A stretch of DNA of 64,000 nucleotides from Candidatus Omnitrophota bacterium (GTDB lineage: Bacteria > Omnitrophota > Gorgyraeia > Duberdicusellales > 4484-171): positions 12,963 through 76,962 of the forward strand of contig JBAWWL010000010.1 in the NCBI GenBank assembly GCA_037146775.1. The letters run 5' to 3'. The position numbers and the translations under genes are program-made. Numbering within the stretch: the stretch's first letter is position 1; every line of letters begins with the position of its first letter. Below are positions 57,158 to 64,000 of this stretch, in pieces. The notes below the pieces were generated by a model. The model did not search any database, had not been told where the DNA came from, and saw nothing but the letters and a program-made list of their open reading frames with translations.

Positions 57158-58009
57158 TTAATCGAACACGACCGTTTTGTTGTTGTAAGCAAGGACCTTT
57201 CGTTCCAGGTGCCAGCGAACTGCCCGGTTTAACACCACTTTTTCTAGGTCTTCCCCTTTCCGTTTCAAATCTTCGAACGTGTCGCGATGACTGACTCGTA
57301 CCGTATCCTGTTCAATGATTGGCCCTCTATCGAGTTGTTCGGTAACATAATGACTGGTTGCGCCGATAATTTTTACTCCCCTGCGATATGCTTTTTCGTA
57401 GGGCTTACGGCCTACAAACGCCGGCAAAAAAGAATGATGGATATTGATAACGCGATTCGGGAACTTTTCAACAAATTGTTTAGTTAAAATTTGTGTATAG
57501 CGCGCCAGCACGATTATTTCAACGTGTTTTTTCTCCAGGAGAGTTATTGTGCGGTTTTCTGTCGGCCGTTTATTTTTTTTTGTAACTTTGAATTCAAAGA
57601 ATTCGATACCGAAATGTTTTGCGATCGGCCGCGCAACCGGATGATTACTGATAATACACGGGATGTGACAGTTGAGTTGATCGCTCTTGTAGCGCAGGAG
57701 CAGGTCATAAAGGCAATGAGTATAACGCGAGACAAAAACAGCCATTTGAGGTTTCTCGAAGCTTGCGTGAAGCGACCAGTTCATTTTAAACCCAGCCGCC
57801 AGAGGCGAAAATGCTTTTACGATATTTTCTTTAGCGATCTTAAAACTATCGAGTGACCATTCGATACGCATAAAGAAGGTGTTTGTCTGGCTGTCGATAT
57901 GCTGATCAGCGTGCTCTATGTTGCCGCCATGCTGATAGATAAAATTAGATATTTTGGCGGTAATTCCTTTTTGATCCGGGCAGGAAACAAGTAAAATCGC
58001 GGTATTCAT
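57158..58009 (-). CDS. purU: Formyltetrahydrofolate deformylase
   Basis: N-terminal ACT domain followed by a formyltransferase core (…NIHHSFLPAFVG…). 283 aa. Confidence 0.75.
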   Translation of the reverse strand: MNTAILLVSCPDQKGITAKISNFIYQHGGNIEHADQHIDSQTNTFFMRIEWSLDSFKIAKENIVKAFSPLAAGFKMNWSLHASFEKPQMAVFVSRYTHCLYDLLLRYKSDQLNCHIPCIISNHPVARPIAKHFGIEFFEFKVTKKNKRPTENRTITLLEKKHVEIIVLARYTQILTKQFVEKFPNRVINIHHSFLPAFVGRKPYEKAYRRGVKIIGATSHYVTEQLDRGPIIEQDTVRVSHRDTFEDLKRKGEDLEKVVLNRAVRWHLERKVLAYNNKTVVFD

Positions 58010-58115: not shown

Positions 58116-60080
58116 TTACGTGCGGGCTTTGCCGTGCTTTTTGAATATCGCTTCTATTTCGTCGTAATCAAGCTCATCTTTTTCGATCAAACTAGCTGCC
58201 ATTTCGTCGACGATGTCCCAGTTTTTACGCAGAATTTCTTCGGTTTCGCGCATGCATTCTTGCAGGATCTCATTACCGTCTTTATCGAGTTGGTCATAGA
58301 AGTAGGGTAGTGCGCGGTTTTGGAAAAACGAGCCCTTGAAATCTCCGACATAACCGGATTTACCCATGCCTAAGCGCCAGGTCATCAAATAAGCCAATCG
58401 GGTTGCTTCTTCGAAATCAGAGCCTGTGCCGACAGACGTGACGCCGTATTTAATTTTTTCCGAGGCATAACCGGCCAGAAAACTTTTGATGTTGGCGAGC
58501 AAATGATTTTTGTCGCGAATAGTAATTTCTTCTTTTTCCGGGGTCCAGGTCACTCCTCCGGCTCCGCCGCGCGGGATAATGGTAACTTTGAATACATCCT
58601 GGAAGGGTACCGCGATATAGGTAACCACCGCATGACCGCTTTCGTGATAAGCGACTCGCTCTCTTTCTTGAGGGCTGTAGCGGCATTTGCGTTTTAATCC
58701 TAATTCGATACGTTCGCGTGCCTCATTAATTTCTTTCATAGTAACTAATTCTTTGTTGGCGCGCACGGCAATAAGCGCCGCTTCGCGTACCATATTAGAG
58801 ATTTCCGCAGGAGTGCTTTGTACGGCCAAACGTGCGAGTTTGTCAATTTTTACATTTTCTTTATCGTATTTTATTTTATTGAGATAGTACTGGAATATTG
58901 CTTCTCTTTCGTCTAGATTCGGCAGCGTTATAGAGATGTGCCTATCAAATCTTCCCGGCCTAAGCAATGCGGGGTCAAGGAAATCGGGATCCATATTGGT
59001 TGCACCAATGACGACAATATTGTATTCGGCGTCTTTGTCTTTCAAGCCGTCCATTTCAACCAAGAGTTGATTCAAAGTTTGATTATGTTCGCTTTGCCCG
59101 CCGCCGCCGGTTTCTGCTCTGCGTTTTGCGCCGACCGCATCAATTTCATCGATAAAAACGACACAACCGCCCTTTTCTTGGGCTGATTCTTTTGCTTCCA
59201 TGAAAAGTCGTCTGATTCTGCTGGCGCCGACACCGACATACATTTCCACAAATTCTGAACCAGCTCGCGCTAAAAACGGCACTCCGGCTTCATTTGCCAT
59301 GGCGGTTGCGAGATATGTTTTTCCACATCCGGGTGGCCCAAGCATCAGTAACCCGCGCAAAATCTTACCGCCTATTTTTTGTACCTGCGCCCGGTCTTTA
59401 ATCAGTTTAACGATTTCCATCCCTTCCTGCTTAACCTCTTCCATGCCCACCACGTCATCCCATCCGATAAGATGTGCGTCCTTATTTTTTTGTAACGAAG
59501 CTTCTCGTAGCTCTTCTATGGTAGGTCGGCGTACGCCTTCTTGAACGAATATCGCTTCTATCTCGGTATAGATAAGTTCGTTTTTTTGGATCAGCTTCTC
59601 GGCAAATATTTCAACCAGTTTCCAGTTTTGACGCAGGATGCTTTTTACTTCCAAGATAGTGCTTTCTATAATGTCTTGTGCGTCCTTATCTAGCTCTTCG
59701 CGTATCAGGTGAGAAATCCATCGACCTTCTTTATCCTCAAAATTTCCTATATAACCGGAATGTCCCATCCCCCAACGCCAGGTCATGTCGTGTGCCGCAC
59801 GCGTAGCACTTTCAAATTCCCGGTCAACATTATTAGAGGTGGTACCAAACTTAGTTTTCTCGGCGACAAAACCGGCGATATACACTTTGATTTCCGTAAG
59901 CAATAAAAATTTATCGCGAGAATAGGTTTTTTCTTTATCGGTTATCCAGGTAAGGCCAGTATTCGATTCTGGCGAGGTAAGAGTAGTTTTCGAAATATCT
60001 TTATTCGGCGCACATAGGTAAGTGATAACAATATGTCCGGATTCGTGATAGGCGGATCTCTGTTTTTCAAGCAAATTCAT
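58116..60080 (-). CDS. Atypical soluble FtsH-like AAA+ metalloprotease with duplicated M41 domains (M41-AAA-M41)
   Basis: No TM helix. First M41 domain: residues 10-180 with HESGH plus …SNNVDREFESAT. AAA+ domain: Walker A GPPGCGKT, Walker B VVFIDEID, pore loop MYVG, SRH ATN…RPGRFDR. Second M41 domain: HESGH plus …GSDFEEAT. 654 aa. Confidence 0.7.
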   Translation of the reverse strand: MNLLEKQRSAYHESGHIVITYLCAPNKDISKTTLTSPESNTGLTWITDKEKTYSRDKFLLLTEIKVYIAGFVAEKTKFGTTSNNVDREFESATRAAHDMTWRWGMGHSGYIGNFEDKEGRWISHLIREELDKDAQDIIESTILEVKSILRQNWKLVEIFAEKLIQKNELIYTEIEAIFVQEGVRRPTIEELREASLQKNKDAHLIGWDDVVGMEEVKQEGMEIVKLIKDRAQVQKIGGKILRGLLMLGPPGCGKTYLATAMANEAGVPFLARAGSEFVEMYVGVGASRIRRLFMEAKESAQEKGGCVVFIDEIDAVGAKRRAETGGGGQSEHNQTLNQLLVEMDGLKDKDAEYNIVVIGATNMDPDFLDPALLRPGRFDRHISITLPNLDEREAIFQYYLNKIKYDKENVKIDKLARLAVQSTPAEISNMVREAALIAVRANKELVTMKEINEARERIELGLKRKCRYSPQERERVAYHESGHAVVTYIAVPFQDVFKVTIIPRGGAGGVTWTPEKEEITIRDKNHLLANIKSFLAGYASEKIKYGVTSVGTGSDFEEATRLAYLMTWRLGMGKSGYVGDFKGSFFQNRALPYFYDQLDKDGNEILQECMRETEEILRKNWDIVDEMAASLIEKDELDYDEIEAIFKKHGKART

Positions 60081-60411
60081 AACCTACTCCTGATTTTTAG
60101 TAAAGTTATTGCTATAACAAACATAAATAATATAACATAACAACCACTAAAAACAATGAATTTTTTGTCAGAGCTTGTTTGGTTTTTATTCTGTTACTTA
60201 AACAACACGCTTTACCGGCCGATTTTTTCCAAAAAAATTAGTTATTTTAATCTTATTATAAAAAATACTGTTAACCGGAAAAATGCCTTTGTCTACTACC
60301 CCACAGGCCTTCGGTCTGGGGAGTTAAAATGTTTTATAAGTGCCTTATACTCATCGCGTTGAGTAATTAGTGAACTGCACCATTTGGTTCTCGGCATTTT
60401 TCCCGGTAGCC

Positions 60412-60432
60412 CAGCAGGCCGAAGGCCTGTTG
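60412..60432 (+). other. Hairpin cagcaggcc-GAA-ggcctgttg (9-bp stem, one G·U)
   Basis: Read directly from sequence. Intergenic between the divergent ftsH-like genes. Confidence 0.4.
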
Positions 60433-60449
60433 GATAACCTCGCTGTGAT

Positions 60450-60496
60450 CTGAATTTTACCTTTAAATATCAAAGAAATATAAGGGTAAAATTCAG
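60450..60496 (+). other. Perfect 12-bp inverted repeat ctgaattttacc / ggtaaaattcag with a 23-nt AT-rich loop
   Basis: Read directly from sequence. Confidence 0.45.
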
Positions 60497-60512
60497 CGGC
60501 GCCCCACAGGGC

Positions 60513-60543
60513 AAAAAAATGCATTTTCTAAATGCATTTTTTG
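60513..60543 (+). terminator. AT-rich terminator-like hairpin (A7-tgcattt-tct-aaatgca-T6), potentially bidirectional
   Basis: A-tract, then a 7-14-bp stem, then a T-tract. Low GC, so likely a weak terminator. Confidence 0.35.
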
Positions 60544-60556
60544 GGTTAATCTTATT

Positions 60557-60585
60557 TTGACAAAGCCTTAAAGATATGGTATCCT
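60557..60585 (+). promoter_or_regulatory. Candidate sigma70-type promoter for the ftsH-like gene (TTGACA - 17 bp - TATCCT)
   Basis: Consensus -35 hexamer at 60557-60562, a 17-bp spacer, and a -10-like TATCCT. AGGTG SD 7 nt before the ATG at 60601. Confidence 0.35.
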
Positions 60586-60600
60586 TTTGCAGGTGTTATT

Positions 60601-62274
60601 ATGAATACAAAATTAAAAATATTTTGGCGGTTATATTGGCTGCGTATTCTTGTCATTACTATTGTCACCATCCTCCTTATCTCCTTAATATTCGTTATCG
60701 TTGCCGGCATAAACTCCTACACTAAAATGGAATCCTTCTATAAAGAGCAGATGAAAGCTAGCATGGCAATGCAATTCTATTTATATGTGGTGGGCGGCTT
60801 AATTACCGCCGTTGTCTATGTTTATCTCTTTACTACGATGATGCATCGCGGAGGCGGAATGCGAGAATTTTCTAAAATACAGACAAAGTCGGTAAAAGGC
60901 GAAGAAATCGGGGTAAAGTGGAAAGACGTTATCGGAATGGAGGAAGTTAAACGAGAGGCCTGGGAAGCGGTAGAGCTAATAAAAGAGCGGGCACGCCTGC
61001 AAAGAATGGGCGGACAAATCATTCGCGGTGTTTTATTAGTTGGGCCTCCGGGTGTAGGAAAAACTTACCTGGCAAAAGCCATAGCTACAGAATGTAATCT
61101 GCCGTTTTTATCTGTTATCGGTAGCGAGCTTGAAGGTATTTTTGTAGGTTTAGGGGCAATGAAAATCCGCAAACTCTTTAAGGCTGCCCGTGAGCTTGCG
61201 GAGCTACAAGACGGATGTATAATCTTTATCGATGAAGTTGATTCGGTAGCTCGGCCGCGGCGAGCAGGCGTTGGGCTTGGCGGAGCAGAAAGTTATAATA
61301 TGGCAGTAAACCAACTGCTTGCGGAAATGGATGGTTTAAGGTCAAAAGAATATAACGTTGTAGTAATCGCTGCTACCAATGTCCCCGAAAACGAACTGGA
61401 GCCTGCGTTGATGCGCGCAGGAAGGTTTGATCGTAAAATATATATCGGTTTGCCGACCCTTGAGGACCGCGAAGCAATATTTAGATTTTATCTCAGTACG
61501 CTCCAGTACGATAGGCAAGGTATCAGATTTGACCATTTGGCGCGTCTAAGCGTAGGTAATACTCCCGCAGATATCGCGAATATTGTCCGTGAGGCATCTT
61601 TAATTGCGGTAAGAAACAGGCGCGAAATTATTACCATGAAAGAAATTGCCGACGCGCGCGAACGTATTACTTTGGGCCTGAAAAGAAAAATTAAATATAG
61701 CCCCCAAGAACGCGAGCGTGTATCCTATCATGAAGCCGGCCACGTGGTAGTAACATACATAGCCGTTCCTTTTAAGGATGTTTTTAAGGCAACCATTATA
61801 CCGCGCGGTTATTCCGGAGGGGTTACCTGGGTTCCGGAAAAAGAAGGAATTGAAATACAAGACAAAAACCACCTTTTAGGAAATATCAAAAGTGATCTGG
61901 GTGGTTATGTCGCCGAAAAAATTAAATACGGCATCACCTCCGTAGGTGTAGAGCAAGACTTTAAGAGCGCAACGGAAATTGCCTATAGAATGGTATGGAG
62001 CTTGGGCATGGGCAATACGGAATATATCGGTGATTTTCGCAGCCAGATATTTAAAGAAAGATACCCTCCAGGATTTTTTAGCGAGCTAGATAAAAACGCC
62101 AACGATATCTTAAAAGAATCAATGGTCGAAACTGAAGATATATTGCGAAAAAACTGGGTTATCGTTGAAGAAATCGCAAAGCAGCTTATTGAGAAAGACG
62201 AACTGAATTATGACGAAATCGATGAAATCTTTAAAGCTCATAATAAAGGGCCATCTCAAACACCTTCTGTTTAG
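60601..62274 (+). CDS. FtsH-like membrane AAA+ zinc metalloprotease (short periplasmic loop)
   Basis: Two N-terminal TM helices separated by only about 20 aa. Walker A GPPGVGKT, Walker B IIFIDEVD, pore loop IFVG, SRH. M41 domain with HEAGH plus …EQDFKSAT. 557 aa. Confidence 0.75.
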   Translation: MNTKLKIFWRLYWLRILVITIVTILLISLIFVIVAGINSYTKMESFYKEQMKASMAMQFYLYVVGGLITAVVYVYLFTTMMHRGGGMREFSKIQTKSVKGEEIGVKWKDVIGMEEVKREAWEAVELIKERARLQRMGGQIIRGVLLVGPPGVGKTYLAKAIATECNLPFLSVIGSELEGIFVGLGAMKIRKLFKAARELAELQDGCIIFIDEVDSVARPRRAGVGLGGAESYNMAVNQLLAEMDGLRSKEYNVVVIAATNVPENELEPALMRAGRFDRKIYIGLPTLEDREAIFRFYLSTLQYDRQGIRFDHLARLSVGNTPADIANIVREASLIAVRNRREIITMKEIADARERITLGLKRKIKYSPQERERVSYHEAGHVVVTYIAVPFKDVFKATIIPRGYSGGVTWVPEKEGIEIQDKNHLLGNIKSDLGGYVAEKIKYGITSVGVEQDFKSATEIAYRMVWSLGMGNTEYIGDFRSQIFKERYPPGFFSELDKNANDILKESMVETEDILRKNWVIVEEIAKQLIEKDELNYDEIDEIFKAHNKGPSQTPSV

Positions 62275-63061
62275 TTTACTTATTGCTTCACTCCTTTCCT
62301 GCGCCGCTGATACTCATACCACCTATTCGCGCAAAGACATCAAAACTATCATACTAAATCTTTGTAAAAACGAATTTAATATTGAGGTTAAGGTTTGGGA
62401 GTCCGGAGAGACTATATGGATTTATGCGCCGTTTGCCAACGTTCTTGATGAAAAACGGCAAATCAACAAAGATATCCAAGCCAATATCCGCAGAATATTT
62501 CTCTCCATTAGCCGTGTTATTTTGAGTATGGATAAAGCGCCGAAATTCTATGCGTTTGTATTTTCCGATACACAAGATATTGGTTTTGACGTGTACTATA
62601 TCGGTTTTGCCTACGATCTGGTTAAATTTGAACTTAACCATATTTCTTTAGGCCAAATGCAGGAGCGCCAGGCGGTATTGCAGTTATTAAACCCACAGGC
62701 GCTGGGAGATGTCGACGGAAACCATATTAATAAGTACGACATCAGCCTGGGAGAATTTGTTTCTTATCTTATCAAGCAAAACATTGAAAAAACTTTTTCT
62801 GCACCCGAGGTAAAAGATAATTTTAAAATTAACGAATTACAGACAAACTTTACAAATGGCAAACTCGAGATTACCTTTGATATTATGGTACAAAAATATC
62901 GCGAAGGGCTTGCATATCCTTTTGACGAAATTACCGCGATCACGAAAAGATTTTTGAAGATTTATGATTTCCCGGCCGACTTGACAGAAGTGGAAATTAA
63001 GGATAACTTCAATAAAAAAACCCGCTTTTATTCCAGAGAAGTCCTCAAAGAAGGAAAATAA
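62210..63061 (+). CDS. Hypothetical lipoprotein
   Basis: Signal peptide with LLSC lipobox. Overlaps the 3' end of the ftsH-like gene by 65 bp. 283 aa. Confidence 0.4.
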   Translation: MTKSMKSLKLIIKGHLKHLLFSLLIASLLSCAADTHTTYSRKDIKTIILNLCKNEFNIEVKVWESGETIWIYAPFANVLDEKRQINKDIQANIRRIFLSISRVILSMDKAPKFYAFVFSDTQDIGFDVYYIGFAYDLVKFELNHISLGQMQERQAVLQLLNPQALGDVDGNHINKYDISLGEFVSYLIKQNIEKTFSAPEVKDNFKINELQTNFTNGKLEITFDIMVQKYREGLAYPFDEITAITKRFLKIYDFPADLTEVEIKDNFNKKTRFYSREVLKEGK

Positions 63062-63085: not shown

Positions 63086-63523
63086 TTAAATTTCTGTAGC
63101 GTTTTCGAGGAAAGGAAGTATTTTTTGTTTATCCTGAAGCGATCTGCCGCTTACTTCTATCTGAAGAGAACCGCTTTGTATCCGAGCGCTTCGGTCTTTT
63201 ACTTCTGCAGGGCCGATAACGAACGTCCCGGGCTTAGCTGCAGTCAATTTATATTCTAATTTCAGCGTCATTATTGTTTTGCCTGCTTTGGTAACGTAAT
63301 TACGTGATTGAGCCTCGGCGACAACAATGAAATCTTTTAATACCGGGAGAGTTAATTGTGGATCGCTAAATTTACCCTCGATAGTTATGGTGTAGGTAAA
63401 AATCTCGCCTGTTTCAATATGATCTTTGTCGGCGGTTGCGTTAACGGTATTTGCGTCTTGGCAGAACGCAAGCGCAAAGAATATATAGAACGAAAATAAA
63501 AAAATACTAACGAATCGTAACAT
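63086..63523 (-). CDS. Hypothetical secreted protein
   Basis: Signal peptide (MLRFVSIFLFSFYIFFALAFC). 145 aa. Confidence 0.35.
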   Translation of the reverse strand: MLRFVSIFLFSFYIFFALAFCQDANTVNATADKDHIETGEIFTYTITIEGKFSDPQLTLPVLKDFIVVAEAQSRNYVTKAGKTIMTLKLEYKLTAAKPGTFVIGPAEVKDRSARIQSGSLQIEVSGRSLQDKQKILPFLENATEI

Positions 63524-64000
63524 GTCTGTTTTTAATGGTAATCCGGTTTTCCGCCAATAATTTAACCGCCCGGGGATACAAAATGTGCTCTATTTTATGT
63601 ATCGCGGCTGTTAACCGTGCGAGGCTGGTGCCGGCTTTTATGGTTACTTTTTTCTGTAAAATAATCGGCCCATGATCGACTTTCTCATCCACAAAATGAA
63701 CCGTAACGCCGGTTACTTTACGGCCGCAGGCAAAGGCTCGCTCGATTGCCCGTTCGCCGCGAAAAGCCGGTAAAAGAGCAGGATGTATATTGATGATCCT
63801 GTGGTTATATCTCTTTACAAAATAAGGCGTGACAATTCGCATGAAACCTGCCAGGATTATTGCGTCGATATCCTCTTGCTCTAATATGCGGATAATCGCT
63901 TTATCAAACGCTAAGCGGGACGGGTAACATTTTGGATTCACGTACACATCCCGCACGCCGAATTTTTTTGCCCGGACACGGACAAAAGCATTCTCTTTAT
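63507..64000 (-). CDS. purN: Phosphoribosylglycinamide formyltransferase (partial, N-terminus beyond window)
   Basis: IINIHPALLPAFRG and VTGVTVHFVDEKVDHGPIILQ formyltransferase motifs. The canonical N-terminus is missing and the frame stays open to the window edge. Confidence 0.65.
   Translation of the reverse strand, partial: KENAFVRVRAKKFGVRDVYVNPKCYPSRLAFDKAIIRILEQEDIDAIILAGFMRIVTPYFVKRYNHRIINIHPALLPAFRGERAIERAFACGRKVTGVTVHFVDEKVDHGPIILQKKVTIKAGTSLARLTAAIHKIEHILYPRAVKLLAENRITIKNRHVTIR

Follow-up and report, generated by a model that had tools for sequence, protein, structure and literature searches.

FtsH is the membrane-bound AAA+ protease that is near-universal in bacteria. In its textbook design, which is regarded as close to invariant, each subunit combines one ATPase and one protease module with two membrane helices and a periplasmic domain. 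The present analysis concerns two neighbouring genes, here called A and B, in a 64,000-nucleotide stretch of a Candidatus Omnitrophota genome (GenBank assembly GCA_037146775.1, contig JBAWWL010000010.1, positions 12,963 to 76,962 of the forward strand), which as a whole is referred to as the window. Both products are FtsH-family members at the domain level, with AAA and M41 domains and intact motifs; A is soluble and carries a second, N-terminal M41 domain, and B is membrane-anchored with a very short loop between its two helices. From sequence comparison we propose, with moderate confidence, that A and B are the split form of a tandem FtsH and would together form one membrane-tethered hetero-oligomeric ATP-dependent zinc protease. 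The complex is proposed because fused relatives exist, A-type and B-type genes are constantly adjacent, A has no anchor, the two proteins share one type of catalytic M41 domain, and the assembly of FtsH is known. The A/B design is a real and conserved variant of the FtsH theme and apparently an undescribed one; a search of the full-text literature yielded no description of tandem FtsH, M41-AAA-M41 proteins or Omnitrophota FtsH biology.

The products of genes A and B are identical to MEI8350271.1 and MEI8350272.1, respectively, both from a Candidatus Omnitrophota metagenome-assembled genome (MAG) and both named 'AAA family ATPase' by NCBI. Each start codon is preceded, 7 nt upstream, by a Shine-Dalgarno (SD) motif (AGGAG for A and AGGTG for B), and a stop codon directly upstream of gene A closes its frame, so that there is no hidden N-terminal extension. 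Pfam places two Peptidase_M41 domains in A, at residues ~1-186 and 469-645, with a single AAA domain (244-385; E = 3.5e-39) and its lid between them. A has no hydrophobic segment, the maximum 19-residue Kyte-Doolittle score being 1.5. Its ATPase motifs comprise Walker A GPPGCGKT (248-255), Walker B DE (311-312), the pore loop MYVG, the sensor-1 Asn and the arginines of the second region of homology (SRH). The N-terminal M41 domain has Glu, not Asp, as third metal ligand, mirrors the C-terminal M41 domain of A in predicted secondary structure, and shares 44% identity with the M41 domain of B. This extra, complete domain is the key oddity of A and outweighs its mere solubility.

In B, Pfam detected AAA at residues 144-284 (E = 4.4e-38), the lid and M41 at 367-543. 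The two transmembrane (TM) helices reach hydropathy scores of 3.37 (TM1) and 1.98 (TM2), and the charge of +4 both at the N-terminus before TM1 and in the segment following TM2 points to an N-in/C-in topology. The inter-helix loop is ~24 residues long in B and 17-30 residues long in 85 family members, compared with 76-102 residues (median 86) in nine canonical FtsH proteins from other phyla scored by the same procedure. Neither A nor B matched FtsH_ext (PF06480) in Pfam, and the TIGR01241 alignment of B begins only at profile position 96. An earlier reading of the same DNA from its letters (the sequence-only reading) had described B as having two helices with a very short loop and no real periplasmic domain, and both proteins as departing from textbook FtsH topology; both descriptions hold. 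The close relationship that it saw between the two proteins is borne out by 61% identity over AAA-M41. A and B score 523.7 and 431.6 bits, respectively, on TIGR01241 (cutoff 600) and 349 and 302 bits on PRK10733 (cutoff 1008), below the cutoff in every case. The best PDB relatives of B are FtsH chains (E = 1e-88 to 1e-82; ~40% identity). Because the short loop is the norm across the clade, including genomes with a single gene (L006, L019), B is more likely the main membrane FtsH of the lineage than an accessory copy, and the framing of A and B as spare atypical paralogues was not supported by the comparison. A tblastn search with A and B found no further ftsH in the window. The automatic gene call of the Logan assembly (L001, 6914-8461) starts B at Met43, giving 515 residues and losing TM1; the 557-residue form is backed by NCBI and by homology.

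The architectures of the family were surveyed in the 120 best database relatives of A, together with B, classed with domain hidden Markov models (HMMs). About 61 of these relatives were tandem proteins of the order TM-TM-AAA-M41-AAA-M41 (T; ~1020 residues), about 32 were single or partner proteins of the order TM-TM-AAA-M41 (S or B; ~555 residues), and about 22 were M41-AAA-M41 proteins like A (~655 residues). All anchored members share the short-loop N-terminus of ~100 residues. The family clade occurs almost exclusively in Omnitrophota MAGs. Trees were built by neighbour-joining (NJ) on simple distances, with 11 canonical FtsH outgroups and separate AAA and M41 alignments; all family modules formed one clade against canonical FtsH with 100% bootstrap for both AAA and M41, so that the phylogenetic comparison with bona fide FtsH proposed by the sequence-only reading gave a separate clade. 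About 20 distinct full-length A-type proteins with 54-74% identity were found in many samples, and the same A sequence is present in two independent assemblies, from NCBI and Logan. One A-type relative, P0074 (L093, 6001-8610), has the order M41-M41-AAA-M41 in 869 residues, with HEAGH in both N-terminal M41 domains, and follows a B-type gene, which shows that the extra protease domain varies in copy number. Other relatives have the order TM-AAA-AAA-AAA-M41 (1113-1132 residues, one of them named Acidimicrobiales) or TM-AAA-AAA-M41 (830 residues) (P0087, P0088, P0090, P0085), and tandem multiplication of FtsH modules is thus not limited to Omnitrophota.

An A-type gene adjoined a B-type gene in all nine distinct loci examined, and none of these loci held an A-type gene without a B-type neighbour. 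The pair is divergent in three loci (the window, equivalent to L001; L002, equivalent to L003 and L091; and L095) and co-linear in the order B to A in six (L004/L005, L089, L090, L092, L093 and L094), where the spacing is -4 to 25 nt. In L089 and L090 the stop and start codons overlap as ATGA, and a GGAGG motif lies within the end of B. Because the nearest relatives of the A protein of the window (~73% identity) include both co-linear and divergent loci, the divergent layout is best read as a derived rearrangement of an operon. The divergent pair and its 520-bp gap had been described by the sequence-only reading with coordinates and strands that agree exactly with the open reading frame (ORF) table, and its idea of a hetero-oligomeric partnership is strengthened by the adjacency in nine of nine loci, the ATGA operons of the relatives and the presence of a fused gene in the same chromosomal slot.

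This slot is conserved in at least 20 loci, the HMM scan having covered 25. On one side lie a solute-binding protein gene with ATP-binding cassette (ABC) permease genes and purU, sometimes with two Band_7 genes, and on the other (BatD-)purN-(RseC-)rnf, with enolase-ftsB upstream in some lineages. The slot is held by a single S gene in L006 (a 1.26-Mb contig), L017, L019, L020 and L024, by a tandem T gene in L008, L014, L016 and L023, and by a B + A pair in the remaining configuration. In L016 and L023 the order purU / T to X / (BatD-)purN reproduces the frame of the window with T in place of A/B, X being the lipoprotein-like gene described below, and in L008 T likewise lies between purU and (BatD-)purN. 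A scan of GTDB species representatives with A returned 17 clade loci (15 titled Omnitrophota), all tandem or single and from 17 different assemblies; it returned no A-type locus, a negative whose meaning is limited by the peptide prefilter. Because no assembly gave two family loci, the data fit S, T and B + A as alternative states of one locus, an argument weakened by the same prefilter. A metagenome scan with the N-terminal M41 domain gave three loci only. An exhaustive HMMER search with this domain gave only seven cluster representatives at E <= 1e-30 among 1.84 billion, and only one of the top matches places the domain N-terminally in a protein of ~660 residues; the A-type design is therefore rare. 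The HMMER matches also include many proteins of ~200-280 residues that are nearly M41-only, and a few with two M41 matches (e.g. P0139, P0146, P0183, P0184; P0171, P0172, P0178, P0181); these may be fragments or stand-alone M41 proteins.

In the AAA tree, the B partners of A-type genes are polyphyletic. The partners in L004, L092 and L093 lie near S types, the L090 partner is sister to a large group of T first-AAA modules (56/60), and the partners in the window, L002, L095 and L094 fall inside another T group (60/60), where the L094 module and the first AAA of P0069, a tandem protein, are sisters (60/60). The A-B pairing thus outlives exchange of the partner, for which shared ancestry alone can hardly account; as judged from these trees, what is conserved is the pairing and not a particular B lineage. 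Furthermore, the AAA module of B nests among T first-AAA modules (NJ bootstrap 100%), and its M41 domain clusters with the C-terminal M41 domains of A-type proteins (98%; 57/60). The M41 domain of B and the C-terminal M41 domain of A thus belong to a single type, which is what a shared ring would lead one to expect. The N-terminal M41 domains of A-type proteins form a clade (100%) that is sister to the internal M41 domains of 36 T proteins (72%), and the A-type AAA modules form a clade (99%) placed beside the T second-AAA modules at 30% only. Simple fission of T into B and A was ruled out, since the pair has three M41 domains compared with two in T and B stands at three places in the tree. A model in which an inverted duplication of A, followed by a deletion, gave rise to the M41 domain of B was also dropped, since co-linear L094 has the same mosaic B.

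All AAA modules of all classes keep Walker A (GxxGxGKT), Walker B (DE), the sensor-1 Asn, the SRH arginines and the pore aromatic, and the AAA motifs of A-type proteins are intact in 23 of 23. The C-terminal M41 domain keeps HExxH and Asp in every protein of every class, and the window contains three intact zinc sites (HESGH with Glu, HESGH with Asp and HEAGH with Asp). In the internal M41 domain of T proteins, 36 of 59 sequences have Tyr in place of the first His, and 11 of 59 have lost the second His (to Arg in eight). The N-terminal M41 domain of A-type proteins has HExGH in 18 of 22 and YQxG(H/R) in the other four (P0044, P0052, P0056 and P0065), with Glu as third ligand in 20 of 22. The N-terminal or internal M41 domain itself is retained in every complete A-type and tandem protein examined. 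In a codon comparison of three orthologous pairs, dN was 0.24-0.30 for the N-terminal M41 domain, 0.22-0.25 for the C-terminal M41 domain and 0.12-0.17 for the AAA modules, except for 0.36 in B versus L094; dN/dS, with synonymous sites saturated, was ~0.15 or lower (~0.18 or lower for B versus L094), which shows purifying selection. The N-terminal M41 domain is thus maintained, although some lineages can do without its catalysis. Since its ligands are often lost in relatives, the domain is never lost and the constraint is equal, these comparisons suggest that the role of the extra M41 domain is primarily structural, as a scaffold.

FtsH consists of six subunits with an ATPase ring on a protease ring, and the M41 domains are the main hexamerisation platform. 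Considering this assembly, we envisage the split tandem protease as follows. B would give the membrane anchor, one ATPase module and one protease module; A, which lacks an anchor, would add another ATPase module and another catalytic protease module and would be brought to B by contacts between M41 domains. The N-terminal M41 domain of A would occupy the place of the membrane helices of B and of canonical FtsH and correspond to the internal M41 domain of the fused proteins; it would probably serve for docking or as a spacer, proteolysis being optional. The linker from the N-terminal or internal M41 domain to AAA is ~14 residues in A and ~12 in T, and that from TM2 to AAA is ~22 in B. Subunits might alternate in a B3A3 ring, with a protease ring made of the B M41 and A C-terminal M41 domains and three N-terminal M41 domains on the membrane-facing side; alternatively, two rings might be stacked and joined through their M41 rings. 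Both geometries are compatible with the linkers, and the AlphaFold2 monomer of A (pLDDT 72, pTM 0.48), in which the inter-domain geometry is not usable, does not decide between them. We infer from these comparisons the physical interaction of B and A and with it the stoichiometry, geometry and substrates of the complex and the role of the lipoprotein X. A canonical FtsH-like function, that is hexameric, ATP- and zinc-dependent processive membrane proteolysis, would follow from the intact motifs and the ~40% identity to solved FtsH.

Several points weigh against this proposal. The interaction of B with A is read indirectly, from the comparison of sequences. The genes of the window are divergent and the region between them is not conserved, so that co-expression is not guaranteed. 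With an intact ATPase and two intact zinc sites, A is fully equipped as an autonomous hexameric protease, and its AlphaFold2 monomer gives no confident inter-domain geometry. B plus A has three M41 domains per two AAA modules compared with two per two in the fused form, so that it did not arise by simple fission; P0074, with its two N-terminal M41 domains, would speak against a strict ring stoichiometry of the N-terminal M41. The B M41 could cluster with the A C-terminal M41 owing to old recombination of neighbouring paralogues, without functional meaning, and the deep nodes of the trees have bootstrap values of 11-49%.

A bolder version of the stacked geometry, which we consider unlikely, is a coaxial two-tier machine in which a membrane-proximal ring of B (or of the first half of T) sits on a second complete ring of A (or of the second half of T). 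The tiers would be joined via the M41 ring that takes the place of the lower tier's membrane helices, membrane-extracted substrates would be threaded successively through both ATPase rings and as many as three protease chambers, and the periplasmic lipoprotein X would stand in for the missing periplasmic domain. If true, such a machine would be a new quaternary design of AAA+ proteases, a natural 'double FtsH', and go beyond another hetero-hexamer.

Possible, if doubtful, is that the two genes encode independent proteases, B an ordinary homo-hexameric membrane FtsH and A an autonomous, soluble, homo-hexameric AAA+ zinc protease whose N-terminal M41 ring would form a second proteolytic chamber or gate, their adjacency stemming from local duplication. 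The M41 domains of FtsH hexamerise on their own, and the Walker A and B motifs, pore loop, arginine fingers and both HExxH motifs of A are all intact; the genes stand on opposite strands with separate promoters in the window, L002 and L095, around an intergenic region that is not conserved. Such independence would leave unexplained why the pair stays adjacent in nine of nine loci despite rearrangement and replacement of B by genes of different origin, why it forms ATGA-coupled operons at two loci, and why single-chain fusions occupy the same locus while every A-type gene seen had a B-type neighbour. It is quite improbable that A is mainly non-proteolytic or regulatory in the manner of FtsHi, capping or gating B with its N-terminal M41 as a binding module. 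That domain is indeed conserved although dead in the P0044/P0052/P0056/P0065 subclade, and its homologue is dead in most tandem proteins; all three zinc sites of the window are intact, however, the conserved Glu ligand (20/22) can still bind zinc, and the C-terminal M41 domain and ATPase are intact in 23 of 23 A-type proteins.

That A is a pseudogene, a truncated tandem remnant or the result of misassembly or of a broken gene call is very hard to credit. Such an origin would account for its lack of the TM-AAA half of the tandem form, and the 'A-like' database entry P0086 is only part of a tandem protein, but the same sequence was recovered in the NCBI and Logan assemblies, ~20 A-type proteins are full-length, dN/dS is ~0.15 or lower, the start codon is preceded by a good SD motif and by a stop codon, and tblastn found no AAA remnant in the intergenic region. 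Membership in an anti-phage or conflict system, IetAS-like or of the FtsH-type MoxR-vWA ternary kind, is likewise highly improbable. The AAA modules match PADLOC IetA and TRIP13 (E = 2e-34 and weaker), and FtsH-type two-AAA proteins do exist in conflict systems (PMC7159879). These matches cover the generic AAA core only and lie far under the FtsH scores (523.7 and 431.6 bits); no IetS, MoxR, vWA or effector gene lies nearby, X has no PADLOC match, and the housekeeping surroundings (purU, purN, rnf, enolase and ftsB) are stable phylum-wide. The split tandem protease, in one membrane-tethered complex, thus remains the reading that we favour.

The features of the locus are collected in Table 1. 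The sequence-only reading had also suggested co-regulation of A and B through a structured intergenic region. A promoter scan of this region gave one good sigma-70-like site (60557-60585, plus strand). The structure is real: the element at 60262-60560, bracketed by TTAATCTTATT direct repeats at 60247 and 60546, folds far beyond shuffled controls (z scores of -9.05 and -5.83 for the plus and minus strands, respectively). It is not conserved, however, in the other divergent loci, whose intergenic regions of 177 and 405 bp are unstructured (z = +0.97 and -1.05) and unrelated in sequence. No similarity to the element was found in L002, L003 or L095, no second copy was found in the window or the fetched loci, and Rfam assigned it no family in a scan of the locus at E <= 1. 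A role of the element as conserved regulator of the pair was thus ruled out, and it is probably a genome-specific insertion, either like a miniature inverted-repeat transposable element (MITE) or a small RNA.

Table 1 Features of the A/B locus and its boundaries (positions in the window; residue numbers refer to the respective protein)
Feature	Position	Strand	Description and basis
purU	57158..58009	minus	ACT + Formyl_trans_N (Pfam); left boundary marker, directly adjoins A
Gene A	58116..60080	minus	654 aa, M41-AAA-M41, soluble FtsH-like; ORF, Pfam, no hydrophobic segment
A C-terminal Peptidase_M41	58119..58700	minus	residues 461-654; HESGH 479-483 (nt 58632-58646), third ligand Asp; Pfam 469-645
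A AAA+ module + lid	58701..59480	minus	residues 201-460; Pfam, motif table
A N-terminal Peptidase_M41	59523..60080	minus	residues 1-186; HESGH residues 12-16 (nt 60033-60047)
Divergent intergenic region	60081..60600		520 bp; both ribosome-binding sites at edges; sequence, promoter scan, SD motifs
Structured element	60262..60560		299 nt; several long hairpins, 29-nt imperfect terminal inverted repeats
Gene B	60601..62274	plus	557 aa, TM-TM-AAA-M41; ORF, Pfam, PDB relatives, TIGR01241
B membrane anchor	60646..60831	plus	TM1 residues 16-34, TM2 residues 59-77, ~24-residue external loop
B AAA+ module + lid	60901..61674	plus	residues 101-358; ATPase motifs all intact; pore loop IFVG
B Peptidase_M41	61675..62256	plus	residues 359-552; HEAGH 377-381 (nt 61729-61743), third ligand Asp
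Gene X (MEI8350273.1, WCI77_08980)	62210..63061	plus	lipoprotein-like; synteny, lipobox
BatD-like gene	63086..63523	minus	Pfam; right boundary marker of locus
purN	from 63507, cut by window end at 64000	minus	Pfam; right boundary marker

The pair had been described as flanked by purU and purN. This is right for purU, which is likewise a neighbour in L002, L008, L016, L023, L094 and L095; on the other side, X and a BatD-like gene intervene between B and purN, and the rnf operon lies beyond purN, as seen in L001, which extends the sequence of the window. Gene X shares 65 nt with the 3' end of B, and X or an X-TPR fusion (the latter in L008 and L094) lies directly downstream of the last FtsH-like gene in nearly all cases, whether single, tandem or split, often overlapping it. 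The X protein has an invariant lipobox Cys27 and ~30 invariant positions, and no family was found for it in Pfam, NCBIfam or PADLOC. Its AlphaFold2 model is confident (pLDDT 90, pTM 0.82) and consists of repeated helix-strand-strand modules; a Foldseek search of the model against PDB gave no match at E <= 1e-3, and only weak local likenesses were seen, to BON/OsmY, to ring-building domains of type III secretion systems and to a protease prodomain-like fold. Because of its constant position after the FtsH-like genes and their missing periplasmic domain, X may, speculatively, be their periplasmic partner. Two Band_7 (HflK/HflC-like) genes lie divergently beside tandem or split genes in L008 (5876-7829) and L094 (1001-2954), and the window has no Band_7 homologue. 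HflKC contacts E. coli FtsH via the periplasmic domain, which these FtsH-like proteins do not have.

Omnitrophota thus rebuild FtsH, with no periplasmic domain clade-wide, a lipoprotein gene downstream, and the ATPase-protease unit in tandem or split form. If A and B form one complex, they would offer a natural covalent/split dimer system in which to study the division of labour among subunits, comparable to engineered linked ClpX rings, as well as a bacterial case in which catalytically dead M41 domains, like those of plant FtsHi, are retained for a scaffold role, and possibly a new stacked architecture. For annotation, sub-threshold proteins labelled 'AAA family ATPase' mean that Omnitrophota may wrongly seem to be without FtsH and that FtsH may be under-counted.

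Like canonical FtsH of E. coli, T. maritima and A. aeolicus (MEROPS M41), A and B have a classical AAA module followed by M41 with HExxH and Asp, and B shares the N-in/C-in topology. They differ in the short loop of B and the absence of FtsH_ext, in the anchorless A with its extra N-terminal M41 domain, in scores below the TIGR01241 cutoff for both proteins, and in forming a clade of their own with 100% bootstrap. Hetero-hexameric FtsH complexes of two paralogues are known from organelles and cyanobacteria (PMC9020784, PMC3339871). The m-AAA proteases (Yta10/Yta12, AFG3L2/SPG7) and the type A/type B complexes of cyanobacteria and chloroplasts resemble the present pair in having two paralogues in one ring, which is proposed here, and the 61% identity of A and B is in their range. 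The subunits of those complexes, however, are all anchored, have one M41 domain each and have no fused relatives, whereas here one subunit is soluble with two M41 domains, a fused version exists and complex formation is predicted.

In the chloroplast FtsHi and Ycf2-FtsHi motor, M41 domains without ligands are kept as structural parts (PMC11266112), which resembles the YEAGH internal M41 domains of the tandem relatives and the YQxGH N-terminal M41 domains of some A-type proteins. In contrast to FtsHi, the M41 sites of the window are all intact, decay in the relatives affects the extra or internal M41 domain only and never the C-terminal one, and the proteins are bacterial and stand outside any import motor. 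The MoxR-vWA ternary systems include an FtsH-type protein with two AAA modules, the N-terminal one inactive, linked to MoxR, vWA and effectors (Kaur et al. 2020, PMC7159879); the duplicated FtsH-type AAA module is a shared feature, whereas no duplicated M41 domain is described there, and neither the inactive AAA module nor the linkage applies here. Finally, the fused relatives resemble the type II double-ring AAA+ proteins (ClpA, ClpB, p97/Cdc48 and NSF) in having two AAA modules per chain, and the AAA core has p97 D2 as one of its strong sequence matches. They differ from these in that a complete protease domain lies between the AAA modules of T, and the window splits the modules over two genes.

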